Source: Scyliorhinus canicula
Taxonomy: Eukaryota
Length of the DNA stretch: 64,000 nt
Direction of reading: 5' to 3'
Assembly: GCF_902713615.1 (NCBI RefSeq)
Contig: NC_052146.1
Location: 41,289,324-41,353,323, forward strand
Of this stretch, positions 33,171-62,902 are shown piece after piece (position 1 is the first letter of the stretch; each line of letters begins with the position of its first letter). The notes beneath the pieces were generated by a model. The model was given only the letters and a program-made list of their open reading frames with translations. It was not told where the DNA came from and did no database searches. The position numbers and the translations under genes were made by a program.

Positions 33171-33383
33171 CTGTAGCAATGGTAAGTTCAATTTGTTCAT
33201 GTGAAGACGTCTGGTTTCAACTTCTGGAGTCCCTTGTTCTTTAGAAGTGGCCATTTCGTGCAACAAAACCAGGATTGCGATTTTGTGTGGGGTGACCCAA
33301 TCTTTGATACCAAAAATATTTGCATGAACCACACCGTTGGCCATCATGGGATTGAAAAACATACTCTCGTGAACGCTGGCCAT
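33171..33383 (-). CDS. ANAPC5: Anaphase-promoting complex subunit 5, coding exon 1
   Basis: MASVHESMFFNPMMANGVVHANIFGIKDWVTPHKIA... matches the vertebrate APC5 N-terminus; ends CAG|gtacgt. Confidence 0.97.
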
Positions 33384-34445: not shown

Positions 34446-36606
34446 CAGTGGCGGACTGGGTCTAAAAATATTGGTTGCCAGGAGACAAAGGGGGCCCACC
34501 CACAACTACAATGCTATCATTTAATTTTCATAATGAATAAATAAAATTTTCAAAAATTACATATGGAAAAAAGGGTACAATTAAAATGTTTGTGGAAAAA
34601 ATGTGTATTTCTTAGTAATTACAGTGTACATGTACTGTACATATTACTGGCAGTAGATACCAAATGTGAATACAGAATGTTATAATTGAATTTTTTTTTA
34701 ATTTTAAGTAATTGGTTGATATTTTTAAATAGTTTACTGCAGAATTTACACATTAACAGATAGTTCAAAAGCACAATAGAGCATTGCATGCAGTCCACTA
34801 TATTAAGAGCAATCGTTTGTGTTCGCTAGATGATTGTGCGAATCTGCCAATAATTGCTTCTGCATCCAATTCATCTAACAATTCCTTTTCAATGGATAGC
34901 AAGATGTATGATTCCAAATTCTCATCAGACAGCGAATTTCGGAACCTTGTCTTTATGATCTTTAGCTTTGAAAATGTCCTCTCACATTGGACTTGAGTAA
35001 CTGATAGTGTGCAGATGACTTTATAAAGTTCATAAAAGTTATCATATGCCTTGTCATGAAGTCTGTTGGATGTCAGAATTTTTAGTACACACGATGGGCA
35101 AGTGCTGCAAATTTTACAATTGTTGCAACTGGAATCCATATTTTCACCATCATTAAGCAATAGCTTTAATACGTCAAAGTTTGAAGCAAAAGAAAACAAT
35201 TCCAATATTACTTGATCTTTGCTGATTTGTGGAAACAGCTTAATAATACCTTCCAATGCTTCATCTTCAAGGCCCTTCTCTGCAATAGTTTTAAACTTTG
35301 CTGGGTCCAAGCAAGACAAATCTTTATACAACTGTTTGTGTTGTACAAAGCGTGATTCTAGTGACTGGACAATGCAATCCATTATTAGGTTAAACACATT
35401 TACTCAAAAATCAGCTAGAGAATCTGAGGAATTTCTTTCATCATCAATAAGCTCATCTGCCATTCTTTTCTTCTTCCTCTGCCTCTTAACTGGCAATGCT
35501 GTTTCCAATGCATCAATTTCCAATGTTTGATTTTCATCCATATTCATCTGTGAAATCCTGTCATTACATTTATTTACAAATTCCAAAGCCTTGCTGTGAA
35601 CGTTATCAAATGTTCTTGTCTGTTCCTTCAACTTTGTTGTAGCTGAATCTACCAAACTCCATGCAGTAAACATATCTAAACCACTTGTCTGTAGATAACT
35701 TGATAACGGGGTTGTAGTTTCAAATATATACAAGTAAGTAAATGCTGTCAATATGGTTTCAAACTTTAGAAGACTTTGAAGTAAAACATTTGCTTCATGT
35801 TTTGTTTTTGCATCAAACTTTTCTGAATCTTGTATCATTGATAAGCATGTCAATAGATTTACGAAAGTACTGGCAGCGGCTTAATCAAAACGTCCAAATA
35901 TAGTTGTTGCTGCATTGGATTTTCCTGACCATCTGGTCTCACCAATTAGCTTTAATCATTTCATTTTTTCTTGTCCTAGATGTTTTCCAACAACTTCTAT
36001 CCATACAGCCATTCTCTTGTATGATGCTTTCACAAAAGTTGCTATATTCTGGAGCAAATTGAAAAAAGAAACTGCAGGCACACAACATTTTGTTGTTTCA
36101 GTTATCACCAAATTCAAGACATGGGCATAGCACCATATATGAACATGTTGATCAGCCACATCAGCAATTTTACTTTGTAAACCATTATACTGGCCATGGT
36201 AGCTTGCAGCGCCATCTGTGCTATCAGATAAACATTTTTGGGGGCCCCGGACCGATGTACCGGCTGAACCAAGAGCTTGATATCCTTTGAAGTTGCCGAC
36301 CATCTCAAATCACGAATTGTAACTTTATCTTTAAATTCACACACTCTTGCTGAAAACATGGAATTTCCTTAATTATGCCCGACCCGGGCCCCCCTATTCC
36401 ACATCCTTCCACTACCTCCCCTGCTTCGTTCCTTTTCATGCACTGCTTATTTGTGTCCTGTTCCCTTTTTTTCTTATTCCTTTTTATTACTAAAACAGTT
36501 GTCTGTGTTTGTTTCTTTATTGCATTTTTATTTGATATAGGGGGCCCACTTCATCAGGGGCCCACTTGCCGTCGGGCAAGCTGACACCCTGGCCAGTCCG
36601 CCACTG
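34446..36606 (-). mobile_element. hAT (Tip100-like) DNA transposon with disrupted transposase
   Basis: TIR CAGTGGCGGACTGG at both ends; 8-bp TSD GGTCGACG/GGTCAACG; STDGAA, HIWCYAHVLNL, CERTFSKLKIIK (hAT dimerization) motifs. Confidence 0.93.
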
Positions 36607-37183
36607 GGTCAACGTTTCAGTAGGGGAGCAGTTCAGGAACAGTGACCACAATTCAGTAAACTTTAAGGTGCTGATGGATAAAGATAAGTGTAGTCCGGTG
36701 CTAAATTGGGGGAAGGCTAATTACAATAATATTAAGCAGGAACTGAAGAATGTAGGTTGGGGGCAGATGTTTGAGGGCAAATCAACATCTGGCACGTGGG
36801 AGGCTTTCAAGAGTAAGTTGAAGGAATTCAGGACTGGCATATTCCTGTAAGGATGAAGGATAAGTATGGCGAATTTCAGAAAACCTGGATAACGAGAGAT
36901 ATTGTGAACCTAGTCAAAAAGAAAAAGGAAGTATTTGTCAAGGCGAGGAGGCAGGGAACACAAATCAAATGTGGAATACAAGGAAAGTAGAAAGAAACTT
37001 AAGCAAGGAGTCAGGAGGGATAAAAGGGGTCACAAAAAATAATTGGCCAGCAGGATTAAGGAAAATCCCAAGGCTTTTCATACATATATAAAGAGCAAGA
37101 GGGTAGCCAGGGAGAGGGTTGGCCCACTCAAGGATAGGGAAAGGAATCTATGCGTGGAGCCAGAGGAAATGGGTGAGGTATTA

Positions 37184-37530
37184 TTATAGAATTTACAGTG
37201 CAGAAGGAGGCCATTCGGCCCATCGAGTCTGCACCGGCTCCTGGAAAGAGCACCCGACCCAAGGTCAACACCTCCACCCTATTCCCATAACCCAGTAACC
37301 CCACCCAACACTAAGGGCAATTTTGTACACAATGGGCAATTTATCATGGCCAATCCACCTAACCTGCACATCTTTGGACTGTGGGAGGAAACCGGAGCAC
37401 CCGGAGGAAACCCATGCACACACAGGGAGGATGTGCAGACTCCGCACAGACAGTGACCCAAGCCGGAATCGAACCTGGGACCCTGGAGCTGTGAAGCAAT
37501 TGTGCTATCCACAATGCTACCGTGCTGCCC
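37184..37530 (-). mobile_element. Full-length canonical HE1 SINE nested in CR1
   Basis: GGGCAGCACGGTAGC head, V-domain, HER1-type tail. Confidence 0.9.
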
Positions 37531-38893
37531 AAATTAAATGAGGTATTAATTTGAGTCAGTATTCACCAAAGAGAAGGACTTGGTGGATGATGCGTCTGGG
37601 GAAGAGTGTGTAGATTGTTTGGGTCTTGTTGAGATTTAAAAGGAGGAGGTATTGGGGGTCTTGAAAAACATTAAGGTAGACAAGTCCCCAGGGCCTGATG
37701 GGATATACTCCAGAATACCGAGAGAGGAAATTTCTGGGGCCTTGAGAGAAAGCTTTGTATCCTCACTGGCTGCAGGGGTTGTCCCAGAGGATTGGAGAAT
37801 AGCCTATATTGTTCCTCTGTTTAAGTAGGATAGCAAGGATAATCCAGGTAATTACAGGCCGGTGAGCCTTACATCAGTTATAGGGAAATTATTGGAGAGG
37901 ATTCTTCGAGACAAGATTTACTCCCATTTGGAAATAAGTGGACGTATTAGTGAGAGGCAACATGGTTTTGTGAAGGGGAGGTCGTGTCTCACTAACTTGA
38001 TCGAGTTTTTCGAGGAAGTGATGAAGATAATTGATGAGGGTAGGACAGTGGATGTTGTCTACATGGACTTCAGTAAGGCCTTTGACAAGGTCCCTCATGG
38101 CAGCCTGGTGCAGAAGGTAAAGTTGCACGGGATCAGAGATGAGCTGGCAAGGTGGATACAGAACTGGCTCAGTCATAGAAGACAGAGGGTAGCAGTGGAA
38201 GGGTGACGGCTGTGACTAGTGGCGTTCCTCAGGGATCAGTGCTGGGACCTTTGCTGTTTGTAATATATATAAATGATTTGGAGAAAAATGTAACTGGTTT
38301 GATTAGTAAGTTTGCGGACGACACAAAGTTTGGTGAATTGCGGATAGCGATGAGGACTCAAATGATACAGCAGGATATGGATCTGTTGGGAGACTTGGGT
38401 GGAGAGATGGCAGGTGAAGTTTAATCTGGACAAATGTGAGGTACATTTTGGAAGGTCTAATACAGATGGGAAATATACAGTAAATGGCAGAACTCTTAAG
38501 AGTATTGATAGGCAGAGGGATCTGGGTGCATAGGTACTGAAAGTGGCAACGCAGGTGGAGAAGGTCAAGAAGGCATACGGCATGCTTGCCTTCATTGGTC
38601 GGGGCATTGAGTTTAAAAATTGGGAAGTCATGTTGCAGCTTTATAGAACCTTAGTTAGGCTGCACTTGGAATATAGTGTTTAGTTCTGGTCGCCACACTA
38701 CCAGAAGGATGTGGAGACTTTGTTTTTTTTTTTAATTTTTCAAGTTTTTTTTCAGCATTTATTCCATTTTAGTGAATCATTTATCACTTGTCAGTTTACT
38801 TAATCACCCAGGCCTTTTTTTTCCAACTCCTAAGTCTAATTTCAAAATAAAAATGACACATGGTGCAAATAGTCAACTAATTCCATCTTCTGA

Positions 38894-39622
38894 TCATCTT
38901 CCAACCTTTCCCAGCCTGTGATCAGTTTTGGGATCAGCTATTATTGACTGAACAGCTACAATGGCTTCATTAATCTTGGTCTGAAGGTCTCGTAGCTCCT
39001 CTATATGCAGCAACCGGAGGACTCGTGCAGCCTCATTCAAGGTGGCATCTCCAGTATCAAAGCCAAGTAAATGCTTTTCCAGAGATACAGTTAAACCCTC
39101 TTTTGATCGGTTTGCTTTTGCAATGGCCTCCGGACTTAGTCGCTCTTGCACCAAAATGCGAATAGCCTGCAACATTATCAGATAGTCATCGTGGCGCTGG
39201 ATTTGTAAAAGGTTAGCCAATGCCATCACACCAGCCTTAAAGTCAGCGTTGTTAATATCCAGATTAACAAGTGGATCGGTGCCTTTAGTAGCATCCTTTT
39301 TTACACTTTCTGCTGTACAATTCTTGTATTTATCTACATTATCTGAATATTCAAGTCTCACAGCCAAGCCCAGAAGCCAGTCAATATTTTCCTGTCTTTC
39401 CTGAGCCTTGAATGGACAGTTTACATCTGCCAGATACTTTTCAAAGCTTTTAGGCCATTCATTACTGTGCACATTTCGAAGGTTGCCTCTCTCTTCAATC
39501 TTGTAATGTCTTACCTTCTGATCTTCAAGCCACACAATTAAATTTCTAAATTCCACCTCATCTTTACAGTCAAACACGCCGCTGTTATGATACTCGAGAG
39601 CCGACAGTTTCCTCCGAAACAT
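38894..39622 (-). CDS. RTRAF: Intronless retrocopy of RNA transcription, translation and transport factor (C14orf166/CGI-99/hCLE); intact 242-aa ORF
   Basis: MFRRKLSALEYHN...EFRNLIVWLEDQKVRHYKIEERGNLR...ADPKTDHRLGKVGR; AATAAA at 38758-38763 (minus), poly(A) ~38723-38740, TSD GGATGTGGAGACTTTGTT at 38707-38724 and 39681-39698. Confidence 0.95.
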   Translation of the reverse strand: MFRRKLSALEYHNSGVFDCKDEVEFRNLIVWLEDQKVRHYKIEERGNLRNVHSNEWPKSFEKYLADVNCPFKAQERQENIDWLLGLAVRLEYSDNVDKYKNCTAESVKKDATKGTDPLVNLDINNADFKAGVMALANLLQIQRHDDYLIMLQAIRILVQERLSPEAIAKANRSKEGLTVSLEKHLLGFDTGDATLNEAARVLRLLHIEELRDLQTKINEAIVAVQSIIADPKTDHRLGKVGR

Positions 39623-40174
39623 TTTAGCATCCACCACGCAACTCGCCAACAATGGCTGGGAACGTCAACGCGTCACACTCGGATGTGGAGACTTTGTTGA
39701 GGGTGCAGAAAAGATTTACCAGGATGTTGCCTGGTATCAAGGGCATTAGCTATGAGAGGTTGGAGAAACTTGGTTTGTTCTCACTGCAATGATGGAGGTT
39801 GAGAGGCGACCTGATAGAAGTCTATTAGATTATGAGGGGTATAGACAGAGTGGATAGTCAGAAGCTTTTTCCCAGGATGGAAGAGTCAATTACTAGGGGG
39901 TATAGGTTTAAGGTGCAAGGGGCAAAGTTTAAAGGAGATGTACGAGGCAACTTTTTTTCACAGAGGGTGGTGGGCGCCTGGAACCCTTTGCCAGGAGAGG
40001 TAGTGGAAGCAAGCAGATACAATAGTGACCTTTAAGGGGTGTATTGACAAATATGTGAATAGGATGGGAAGAGAGGGATATGGTCCCCGGAAGAGTCGGG
40101 TTTTTAGTTCAGGCGGACAGCATGGTTGGCGCAGGCGTGGAGAGCCGAAGGGCCTGTTACTGTGCTGTACCTTA

Positions 40175-58169: not shown

Positions 58170-61100
58170 TAACGTTTTTTTTTTTAGTATACAAAACAAA
58201 TATAAACATGTACAAGCAGTGTGAGTAACGCAAGAGAGTATATAAGGAGTAACATTGGAATTATTTACATCAAGATCGGTTTTAACTATTTGCATAGATA
58301 CACCACAGTTTCCCCTTCCTTTTCTTTTGTCCCTTCCTTGCAATGTTTGCTGTAGTAATTGTGGTTCCCTGCGTTTTGCTCTCTACCGGATTTCCCTTGG
58401 GCTTCCTGGTTGTTGGCTACAAACAGGTCTTGGAACAACTGAATGAATGGCTCCCACATTTTGTGGAAGCCTTCTTCCGACCCTCAGATAGCGAATTTGA
58501 TTTTCTCCATTTGGAGAAATTATGACAGGTCGGACAGCCAGTCTGCAGCTTTGGGTGGTGCTGCTGATCGCCAGCCGAGCAGGATTCTCCGGCGGCGATC
58601 AGGGAGGCAAGGGCGTCGGCCCTCCTCCCCATGAAGAGATCTGGCTGTTCTGATATCTCGAAGACTGCCACTCTCGGTCTTGACTCCACCTTCATCCCCA
58701 CCACTTTGAACATTGCCTCAAAGAAGGCTGTCGAGACCCAGCAAGTCTGGATCCAAGACCAGAACATGCGGGCGTGGTTGAACAGATGGTTCGCATCTGT
58801 CCTCCACGTACGGGGAAGAACCCGCTCATTCGGGTTCTGGTTAAATGAACTCTTTGTACTACTTTTAGCTGCAATGGCTTAGCCTTGCGCACGTGGAGGT
58901 GGGGTTGACCCTGTACATGTTTCGCTCCAGAGCCCCACCCTATTTCAAACCCCAAGTCCTCCTCCCACTTCTCCCTTGTCTCATCCGTACATGTCCCCGC
59001 AGTTCTCTTTCCCTAAGATGTCCATATTCAGTAGTTCCCAGCAGTGACTGTCTTGGTGGTCGTCGGTACGTCCTCGTTTCTTATCGGAAGTTTTTGAGTC
59101 GTAGATACCGGAGTTCGTTAGCCCCTGTCGGTTGGAATCTTTCTGTCAGTTCTTTGAGCATTGTTAACCTGCTGTTGCTGTAACCCAAAATGCTGTAGCG
59201 GTTGATTCCATGACTGGAGCATTGCCATTACCACTGGGCTAGTTGAATATTTCTTGGGTGGAGATGGGAGTGCCACCGTAGCTAGGGCATGGAGGGAGGT
59301 CCCCTTGCTGGTGTCCTTCTCCATTAGCACCCACTGCTTTTGGCTCCTTTATCCAACCCTCTCTCTGCGATCGCTGCCCAGTGGTAGTACTGTAAGTTTG
59401 GGAGGGCTAAGACCCCCTGGATCTCGTTCTCTGCAGTACATTTTTTGGGATCCTTGCATTCACCCCCCCCCCCCCCCCCAAACGAATGCACCCTCCCTGC
59501 CAGGGAAAGTGTTCCATCTCTGCAGTCCTTTTCAACTTCCTCTGTCAGGCTGGTCAGATTCCATTTGTGGACCCCTGTCCAGTTGTGGACGATTTGGATC
59601 TTCAGGTAGCGGAATTTGTGCTGGGTCTTTTTGAAAGGTAGCTCCTCCAGCTCTGCCCCTCCCCTTTGCGGGTTCACTGGGAAGATCTCGCTTTTGTTTT
59701 TTGGAGAAGGCTCCAAACTCTTTCAAGAGCGCCATGAGTCCTTCCGTACTGCTTTGTGGGTCTGAGATGTAGAGGAGCAGGTCATCTGTATGGAGCGAGA
59801 CTCTGTGCTCTCTGCCTCCTCTCTGGGTCCTTTTCCAATTCTTTGCCATCCTGAGCGCGATCGTTAATGGCTCGATCGCTAAGGCAAATAGCAGTGGGGA
59901 AAGTGGACACCCCTGCCTTGTGCCCCTGTGCAACTGGAAGTACTTAGAACTGGTGGTGTTTGTCCGTATGCTTGCTGTGGGGGTGTGATACAGGGGCTTC
60001 ATCCAGGAGGTGAATCCTGTTCCAAACCCGAACTGCTCCAGGTACTTCCATTCCCTTTTCTGCGTCCAGGGTGACAACCACCTCGGGTATTGTCTCCCCA
60101 GATGGGGTCATGATTACGTTCACCAGGTGCCTGATGTTCAAAGTTAGCTGTCTACCTTTGACAAAGCCTGTCTGGTCCTTTGCGACCACCTCTGGCACGC
60201 AGTCCTCCAGCTTTTGGGCCAGGAACTTGGCCAGTATTTTTGCATCTACGTTTAGTAGCGAGTTGGGTCTGTAGGAACCACACTCTGTTGGGTCCTTGTC
60301 TTTTTTTAGGTATCAGTGAGATTGAGGCTTGTGCTAATGTAGGTGGCAGTGTGGCCCTCGCAAGCGAGCCTGTGAACATCTTCCGCAGGTGCGGGGCCAG
60401 TGCCGTCGCAAATCTTTTGTAGAAGTTAGCTCGGAAACTGTCCGGTCCTGGCACCTTCCCCGTCTGCATGAAGCTAGTACTCTCCATGACCTCTCAGTTC
60501 TAGCGGTACGTCCAGGCCCCGTTTCCTGTCCTCTCCCACGACCAGCAGGCCCAGTCCATCAAAGAACAGCTTCATCCCCGAGTCCCCTGCTGGGGGCTCC
60601 TTGGTGTACAGCCCCTGGTAGAAGTTCTCAAAGGCCTTGATGACCTTGTCCTGTTCCCCTACTGATTTGCCTCTGCTATCCCTAATTCAGGCAATCTCCC
60701 TCGTGGCTGCCTGCTTTCTCAGCTGGTGGGCCAGCAAGTGGCTGGCCTTATCTATTTGTTCATACAGGGTCCCACGTGCCTGGCGGAGTTGGTGCACTGC
60801 TTTACTTGTGGAGAGCAGATCAAAGTCCATCTGTAGCTATTTTCTCTCTGCCAGGAGCTCTACGGTCGGGGCCTCGGAGTATTGCCGGTCCACCTCCAAT
60901 ATGGAGTCAACTAGCTGTTGCCTCGCTGCACTCTCTTCCCTGTCCCTTTGTGCTTTAAAATTGATAATGTATCCCCTGGCCTTCAGCGCCTCCCAGAACA
61001 TGAGACCTCCCCATTCTGGTTACTAGTAATATATTCATCTATGGCCTGTGATATGTTCTCGCAAAAACCCTCATCGGCCAGGAGTGCCGTGTCCAATGTC

Positions 61101-62645
61101 CATGGGGGGGCGTGGGTCCGGCCCGTCTTCAACCTCCCATCCATATAGTATGGAGCGTGGTCGGAGATTACGATCGCAGAATAATCTGCCTCACCAGCCA
61201 TGATGTACTGTCCCCTGGATCCATAACTGTCTTTGTTGCCGTGAACTTTGACCTCTTATTTAGCAAAATGGCTACCCCCCTGGCCCTCATCCCGTAGCAG
61301 GAATCCCACCCAGCTCTTCCTTACCCACATTCGGTCCTTTTCCCTCAGTTGTGTCTCTTGGAGGAGGAAGACTATGTTGGCTTTCATGTTTCTCAGGTGG
61401 GTGAAGACTCTGGATCTTTTCACTGGGCTGTTAAGTCCCCTAACATTCCAGGTGACTATCCTGTAGAGGGGCTTTTGTCCCCTACTCCTGTGGGATCAAC
61501 CATAATTACTTAATGGACATAATTACCTCCGTGCTTTCCCTTTGTTAGGGGGCTGCCCAAAATGGCCGCGGTCACTTTTCTCCCCATGAGGTCGGGCCCC
61601 TGGACTCCGGGGTTTCCCTTTGCCCAGGGACTCTCCCAAGTGGTTGCTTGCAGCACCACTTTGTTCTAAGTCGCCACATGTGGCCTGCTGTAGCCAGTGT
61701 AATGTCCTCCATCTTTCCTCATCTATTTCTTCCTTACGGTAGTGTCCCCCCGCCAATCCTGTTTCTTTCCCAGCTTACCCCCTGTCTCCGCTTTTTCCAA
61801 CCCCTGCCAGGCCCTTTCCCCCTTGCCGGAGACGCACCGCGGGTTCTTGCCTTCTCATGAATCACGGTTGTGTTGTTAGAGTCACGTTCTGCGGGCTTCT
61901 CTGCTGCCGCTTTTCCAGCCCGTGCTCTGCAACGAACTTGCTGCGCTTGCAGGGACCATGAAAAAGTGCTCTCTGTCTTGGCATGTGACCCAGAACTTGG
62001 CTGGGTACAACATTCCAAACGTTATGCTGTTCTTGTACAGCACGGCCTTTGCTTTGTTACATTCGGCCCAGCGCTTGACCAGGTCAGCCCGAATGTCTTG
62101 GTATATCCAGATCTTGTGTCCTTCCCAGTTGCAGTTTTTGGACTGCCTGGCCCAGTGCAAGATTCTCTCCCAGTCTTGGTACCAGCGCATTTTCGCAATT
62201 ATCGCCCTCGGCTGGTCCCCGGCTTTGGCTTTGGTCGGAGCGACCAGTGTACTCTGTCTACTTCTGGTGGGTTGGGGAAGCGCTCCCCTCCCACCACTTT
62301 ACCCAGCACTTGGGCCATGTATTTTGTGGGATCCCTACCCTTGATCCCCTCTGGTAGGCCCACGATTCACAAGTTCTGACCCTCGACCGATTCTCTTGGT
62401 CTTCAACCTTTCCTTTCAGGTTGACTTGTGTCGCAGCCAGCCTCGCTACCTCCTTTTCCAGGGTGACGATCCGGTTGCCCTGGTCCGTTGTGGCTTTTTC
62501 CAGGTCTTTGATCGTCGTCTCCTGGGCCTCCAGTCGCTTTTTGGCTCTGTCCACGGCCAACCGCATGTGCACCAGAACTTCGGCCACTGCGCCCTTCACC
62601 ACAGCCTGAATGTCCGACTTTGTCTCATCTCTATGTTCCCTCAAT
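58170..62645 (-). mobile_element. Near-full-length degenerate L1-clade element (ORF1, EN, RT, zinc knuckle)
   Basis: ORF1 (KVEDQENRSR, KIWIYQDI, FGMLYPA), WNVRGLNSP, ISDHAP, DQTGFVKGR, RGTRQGCPLSPLLFAL, HTDDLLLY. Confidence 0.9.
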
Positions 62646-62902
62646 GCTCTTTTTTTAACCGACAATTTTATTGAGGTATTTTTGGCATTGTAAACAGTAA
62701 CAATATACATTAGTGTGCAGATACCAATTACATAAAACATAGTGCAAATAACAGTACCCCTCTCGCAAATAGACCCGCCTATTCTTCCCTCCTACTCTAC
62801 ACTATTCTACCCTATAACATTCAATGGCATTACCATCGCCTAATCCTGCACATCGAAATCCTGGGGGTTACCATTGACCAGAAATGGATTTGGACTAGCC
62901 AT

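Follow-up and report, generated by a model that had tools for sequence, protein, structure and literature searches.

An intron-free, full-length copy of RTRAF mRNA in the catshark genome, likely made by an L1-clade element and likely still segregating

A stretch of 64,000 nucleotides of the genome of the catshark Scyliorhinus canicula (hereafter the window; NCBI RefSeq assembly GCF_902713615.1, contig NC_052146.1, positions 41,289,324 to 41,353,323 of the forward strand) carries an uninterrupted RTRAF reading frame without introns inside a decayed LINE. The question is whether this frame represents a new gene, as a first-pass annotation made from the sequence had suggested under the heading of a candidate new retrogene, or a recent mRNA copy that selection does not maintain. 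RTRAF, also named C14orf166 or hCLE, is a subunit of the RTCB-DDX1-FAM98 complex. The results presented here indicate that the locus is very probably a full-length, intron-free copy of the RTRAF mRNA, likely made by L1-clade machinery, likely still segregating in the species and likely not under selection.

The copy lies on the minus strand and is bounded by an 18-nt direct repeat, with one unit at its 5′ side (39681–39698) and one at its 3′ side (38707–38724), which are 100% identical and enclose 956 nt. This 18-mer was found exactly twice in the 4.22-Gb catshark genome, that is, only at these two places, and the repeat is thus a true target-site duplication (TSD), as perfect as first described. 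Read in the sense of the gene, the target is ...CCCTC|AACAAAG..., a pyrimidine|AA site. Between the repeats, the copy consists of a 5′ UTR of 58 nt (39623–39680), a length that the comparison with the parent gene bore out, an open frame of 242 codons (38894–39622) in which the eight exons of the parent are joined precisely, a 3′ UTR of 161 nt (38733–38893) templated by the parent's last exon, and an untemplated poly(A) of eight uninterrupted A (38725–38732) that has no counterpart in the parent; the tail comprises 11 A if one templated A and two A of the TSD are included. The AATAAA signal occupies 38758–38763, 25 nt before the cleavage point. The first-pass annotation had thus recognized the frame, the signal and the presence of a 3′ UTR correctly, and had erred on the length of the last (about 150 nt) and in reading the poly(A) as already interrupted. 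The A-rich stretch in question (A8-CTTG-A5-TT) is found unchanged in the last exon of the parent; because it is templated there and is not part of the tail, the hint of age fails, and an age estimate from an interrupted tail was ruled out.

The product of the frame matched the Pfam family RLL (PF10036) in a profile search with E=2e-95, and PDB entry 9i8v_E aligned with it end to end. At its 5′ end, the copy begins approximately 6 nt downstream of the position at which the parent transcript is likely capped, and a contig of sequencing run X13 has a loose end that extends 6 nt upstream of the copy start before reaching an adapter-like sequence, which we take to be a template-switch adapter; because this contig ends there, likely no more than about 6 nt of the full length is missing from the retrocopy. 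No promoter was copied with it, and no LTR flanks were seen around it. Retrocopies are recognized by a spliced mRNA copy, a poly(A), a long TSD and a nick in a T-rich strand (PMC5131818), and at this locus the introns are gone, an untemplated poly(A) follows the signal, the TSD is long and the target is of the L1 endonuclease type.

The parent RTRAF gene, situated on another chromosome than the copy (contig C2), has eight exons and seven GT-AG introns with an open frame, so that the check on the parent that the first-pass annotation had proposed found it intact. It is the only other RTRAF locus found in the genome, neither a DNA search nor a family search having returned further copies. Loss of the parent and its replacement by the copy was ruled out, since the parent gene is intact and RNA contains the parent form. 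Copy and parent differ at four places in about 950 nt (99.6% identity) and share 241 of 242 residues: at 39655 in the 5′ UTR, at 39515 (K36, synonymous), at 39256 (V123I, at the final base of exon 4 in the parent) and at 38823–38824, where there is one extra base in the 3′ UTR. These places were compared with assembled contigs of seven of the 24 listed runs, from seven of the 10 studies (X20–X24, with a small or zero share, were left out), namely six RNA-type runs (X1, X6, X7, X8, X9 and X13, the kind of which was guessed or is not stated) and the DNA run X4. The copy's letter at 39515 occurred in parent-type contigs of X6 and X8 (two of the six RNA-type runs), that at 38823 in a parent-type contig of X6 (one of three runs over the site), and that at 39655 in X7 (one of four covering runs), as deduced from the contig's mismatch count; furthermore, a contig of X8 starts at 39654, as a fork at 39655 would cause. 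Because the copy's letters occur in parent-type transcripts, three of the four differences are parental variation captured by the copy, and one, at 39256, is private so far. All six RNA-type runs had only the parent letter at 39256, and the X4 contigs do not cover this position, so that the private letter is known from the assembly alone. Residue 123 is valine in the parent, as it is in each of the 10 further shark and ray proteins of the alignment, and I123 is thus derived; the replacement is conservative, isoleucine occurring at this residue in eight of 133 homologs. The private change may have arisen in reverse transcription or by mutation afterwards, or it may reflect a rare allele or an error in the consensus.

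The copy stands antisense in a CR1-type LINE on the plus strand (ORF2 and 3′ end, 36697–40169, edges approximate), as first described. The name CR1 presumably holds, given a protein motif and the microsatellite-type tails of the paralogs. Two inserts split the host, the retrocopy and an older SINE-like element (approximately 37186–37530) with a flanking repeat of roughly 10 bp, and fragments of a hAT transposase (Pfam Dimer_Tnp_hAT) adjoin it at 34798–36359. Its decay was also confirmed: over 275 nt, the 39 copies with the best scores were 87–92% identical to it, and over longer stretches three paralogs were 84–88% identical, giving a divergence of 8–16% from its nearest copies, and the plus strand has only short ATG-started ORFs, with indels relative to other copies. 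Because the host is far older than its insert, an intact frame within a broken host says nothing on selection. On a larger scale, the copy lies between ANAPC5 (minus strand) and RNF34 (plus strand), divergent neighbours about 10.7 kb apart. The first coding exon of ANAPC5, at 33383 on the minus strand, has its own CpG island, and a location of the copy inside an ANAPC5 intron is unsupported as far as coding exons were considered. An RNF34 exon lies at 57.4–58.0 kb, and the first exon of this gene is likely near 44.1 kb (about 44114), in a CpG island. The 5′ end of the copy is 4.4 kb from this CpG-island promoter, the gap being filled with nested repeats, and the copy is oriented away from it. 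Elsewhere in the window, an open frame of 246 aa that encodes a FLYWCH zinc finger (14563–15303), which we assume is likely a MULE-type transposase, lies within an ANAPC5 intron, and a degraded L1-type element (approximately 58400–62800, minus strand) lies downstream of the SAP exon of RNF34.

The catshark genome also contains an abundant and very young L1-clade family of approximately 7 kb with a GC-rich tandem-repeat 5′ region (for example, loci L106–L125 on contigs C1–C4, and L091–L105), which is probably more interesting than the retrocopy. The family was searched for with an in-frame reverse transcriptase segment from a young element, a query from a broken copy having favoured copies frameshifted at the same place. 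The best 150 of 238,036 candidates were all identical at 100% over 200 aa, and 22 of these 150, by hand count, had ORF2 frames of 1287 aa or more, corresponding to a full ORF2 frame. Among the 20 full-frame copies examined, 18 had a TSD of 9–17 bp (mean 14.4), with T or C before the nick in 18/18 and AA after it in 16/18; the third base of these Y|AA targets was most often C (7/18), the poly(A) measured 6–17 nt and pairwise identity was 98.5–100%. In a second set, eight of 15 elements had a TSD of 11–17 bp. Elements without a TSD result, two of the 20 and seven of the 15 (failed or spurious short repeats), stand outside these counts. ORF2 of the family matched human L1 ORF2p with E=1e-140 and ORF1 matched human L1 ORF1p with E=2e-4, and a genome search with Pfam Transposase_22 returned four weak matches only; the profile did not match the ORF1 of this family. 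To judge from the full ORF2 frames, the genome appears to hold a competent L1-clade element, which may be of L1 or of Tx1 type.

The target C|AAC, the short tail and the long TSD of the retrocopy agree with the footprint of this family, although at 18 bp the TSD exceeds the longest of the 26 measured L1 TSDs by 1 bp, and the L1-clade family likely wrote the RTRAF copy. The view of the first-pass annotation that this is a processed copy made by L1-type machinery is thus supported by exon joining, tail, TSD and the footprint of the young family, and so is the former of its two alternatives, a very young processed copy that reflects recent L1 activity. We propose the following scenario. The L1 ORF2 protein may have bound RTRAF mRNA in trans in the germline and introduced a nick into the bottom strand, which is T-rich, at a Y|AA target; reverse transcription would then have been primed on the poly(A) of the mRNA and have stopped about 6 nt short of the cap, with the 18-bp duplication left behind.

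Whether the insertion is carried by all members of the species was examined in the DNA run X4, in which both junctions of the copy are present without mismatch. One X4 contig begins at 38695 and another stops at 39710, with the following contig beginning at 39681; 38695 and 39710 correspond to the first and the last 31-mer in which a base is specific to the insert, and the contigs break precisely where, with 31-letter words, the coexistence of a filled and an empty allele would be predicted to cause a fork. The TSD itself cannot cause such a fork, because an 18-bp duplication is too short alone and the TSD word recurs at no further place in the genome; all 29 CR1 paralogs examined differ at it. 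The insertion likely still segregates because the contigs break exactly at both edges of the TSD, and these contig ends make an empty allele in the species likely. No other DNA run contains the copy stretch, and X4 may be the very run from which the assembly was built; its depth is 3–6, and its contigs are possibly chimeric, that over the 5′ junction running on for 52 unlike letters. It is probable, with a little less assurance, that this cartilaginous fish carries a retrocopy which L1 made and which still segregates. No published retrocopy presence/absence variant (retroCNV) in sharks was found by title and abstract start, and no published RTRAF retrocopy was found in the literature, in both cases with subscription journals outside the scope.

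Three other accounts of the origin and status of the copy were weighed against this reading. A neutral copy fixed species-wide, up to a few million generations old, would need another cause for the breaks and ancestral status for the shared letters. The slow mutation rate of sharks permits such an age, a run from organism B has two of the copy's letters, and an empty-site contig was absent among the X4 records inspected (60 records and two loose ends were outside view); however, all three X4 contig ends lie where an empty allele predicts them, beside a TSD word without a further occurrence, and the letters at 39515 and 39655 vary among the organism A runs too, so we regard fixation as unlikely. 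A copy made by host-type CR1 machinery, or by a non-L1 route such as LTR template switching or DNA repair, is very improbable. The copy does have a CR1 as its host, retroduplication outside mammals has been linked in a preprint to the content of CR1 or Tx1 (10.64898/2026.06.26.734816), and LTR-mediated retrocopies have been described in zebrafish and chicken (PMC5131818), but the copy is antisense to the CR1, which it splits with a long TSD and which is itself 8–16% diverged, the tails of the CR1 paralogs inspected end in short T-rich repeats and not in poly(A), both target and tail match the L1 family, and LTRs are lacking at the flanks. Within the broad clade of that family, the maker may nevertheless be of Tx1 type. 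An assembly artefact, in which cDNA-like sequence was mis-joined into the scaffold, could account for the near identity to the parent, but hardly for a perfect TSD of a genome-unique word or for two junctions free of mismatch in public DNA contigs; these junction contigs rule it out unless X4 is itself contaminated, and we give it next to no weight.

Segregation of an L1-made copy leaves the question of function. Neither the copy-private letter nor a copy junction was found in any of the six RNA-type runs, among the contigs listed, and the readable 5′ loose ends (X7 and X13) run on into sequence upstream of the parent. Since RNA contigs drop rare variants, the tissues are not stated and the RNA donors were possibly non-carriers, this result is an absence of support for expression, and low or testis-restricted expression may occur. 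The alignment to the parent proposed at first pass was carried out, whereas the dN/dS ratio proposed with it was not computable: there is one synonymous (K36) and one non-synonymous (V123I) difference, the latter being the only private one, and dN/dS has no power on such counts. In a neutral simulation with an assumed indel share, the frame stayed open in 91% of copies at 0.1% divergence and in 62% at 0.5%; because some 90% of neutral copies thus keep their frame at such divergence, the open frame is uninformative on selection and reflects that almost no mutations have accumulated. At a shark mutation rate of 7e-10 per base per generation, estimated in another species (PMC10587355), one private change corresponds to roughly 0.04–8 million generations, or to none if the change arose during copying. 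The word young is accordingly used here in mutational, not calendar, time. Because no promoter was copied, the fate of the insertion is likely loss by drift or slow decay.

A nascent retrogene, in which the copy is transcribed via the divergent promoter of RNF34 or a CRE-like motif in its 5′ UTR and adds to the germline dose of RTRAF, is quite improbable, and slightly more so is the combination in which an ORF-intact copy, made by a mobile L1 and still segregating, is already transcribed in the germline, with the RNF34 promoter acting in the divergent direction. The parent start region (L004:1200-1620) has several near-repeats of a GAGTGTGACGCG / TGACGTCA motif, which is CRE-like, and one CRE-like motif lies within the copied 5′ UTR. 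A full-length open frame with one conservative replacement, a position between two divergent housekeeping genes and an orientation away from the RNF34 CpG island would all suit a gene in the making, and expressed single-exon copies have been described in the Greenland shark (10.1101/2024.09.09.611499). The exact protein of the copy is furthermore listed in NCBI, UniRef and nr, an entry that reflects automatic annotation as coding. However, the frame is no more open than neutrality predicts, the intact parent is expressed, the promoter lies beyond 4.4 kb of repeats, and the 5′ ends in X7 and X13 are those of the parent. A second-locus RTRAF protein in other sharks was found in none of the 15 of 19 cluster members listed, a weak indication. 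The first-pass annotation had itself held that near-complete identity to the parent with no copy-specific expression would refute its candidate, and with 99.6% identity and no copy letter or junction in six RNA-type runs this is what was found, as far as it was testable; its headline of a candidate new retrogene is thus unsupported.

The likely neutral, segregating RTRAF copy resembles the L1-made processed pseudogenes and retroCNVs of mammals described in human (PMC3554589), mouse (PMC8826619) and equids (PMC10249811), both in its hallmarks and in its likely presence/absence variation. It differs from them in its cartilaginous host, in a tail of 8 nt that is like that of the local L1 and in that its polymorphism is inferred from the contig ends of one run. 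Unlike parent-type RTRAF (for the literature on this protein, see PMC6388641), it is intronless and promoterless, bears V123I and showed no expression in the six RNA-type runs. A survey of Vertebrate Genomes Project (VGP) assemblies reports 14,081 retrocopies in cartilaginous fishes, of which 95.7% are species-specific and 15.7% ORF-bearing (10.64898/2026.06.26.734816). The catshark copy fits this class and may be in that catalogue. The survey links retroduplication to CR1 and Tx1 by correlation, whereas the junctions of the catshark copy point to the L1-clade family, and the string "polymorphi" is absent from its main text. Among sharks, the single-exon copies of RAD51, OPTN and other genes in the Greenland shark are alike in being intron-less, derived from multi-exon genes and near LINEs or LTRs, and the RAD51 copy is reported to be expressed; TSDs, enzyme and polymorphism are not described in the passages on these copies (10.1101/2024.09.09.611499). 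LINEs account for most of the recently active elements according to a catshark genome paper (PMC11979771), and L2, CR1 and SINEs are prevalent in the elephant shark according to a review (PMC5381603).

As one locus among thousands of retrocopies catalogued in cartilaginous fishes, the RTRAF copy is ordinary; it is of use as a marker. Its junctions suggest that in the catshark a young L1-clade family, rather than the dominant CR1, is likely the copier of host mRNAs, with a mammal-like footprint, and since copies of this kind are likely still segregating, a survey of sharks for retroCNVs is directly testable. Two cautions apply to such copies: the slow shark clock preserves an open frame and near identity for long without selection, and automatic annotation lists them as protein-coding genes. 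Older intronless copies with stops were found in both ribosomal families tested, RPL21 (L126:1380-2030) and RPS3A (L130:1416-2230), and the RTRAF copy would be expected to decay as these have in the same genome. The RPS3A copy has a direct repeat of 20 bp or longer at its flanks, without a poly(A).
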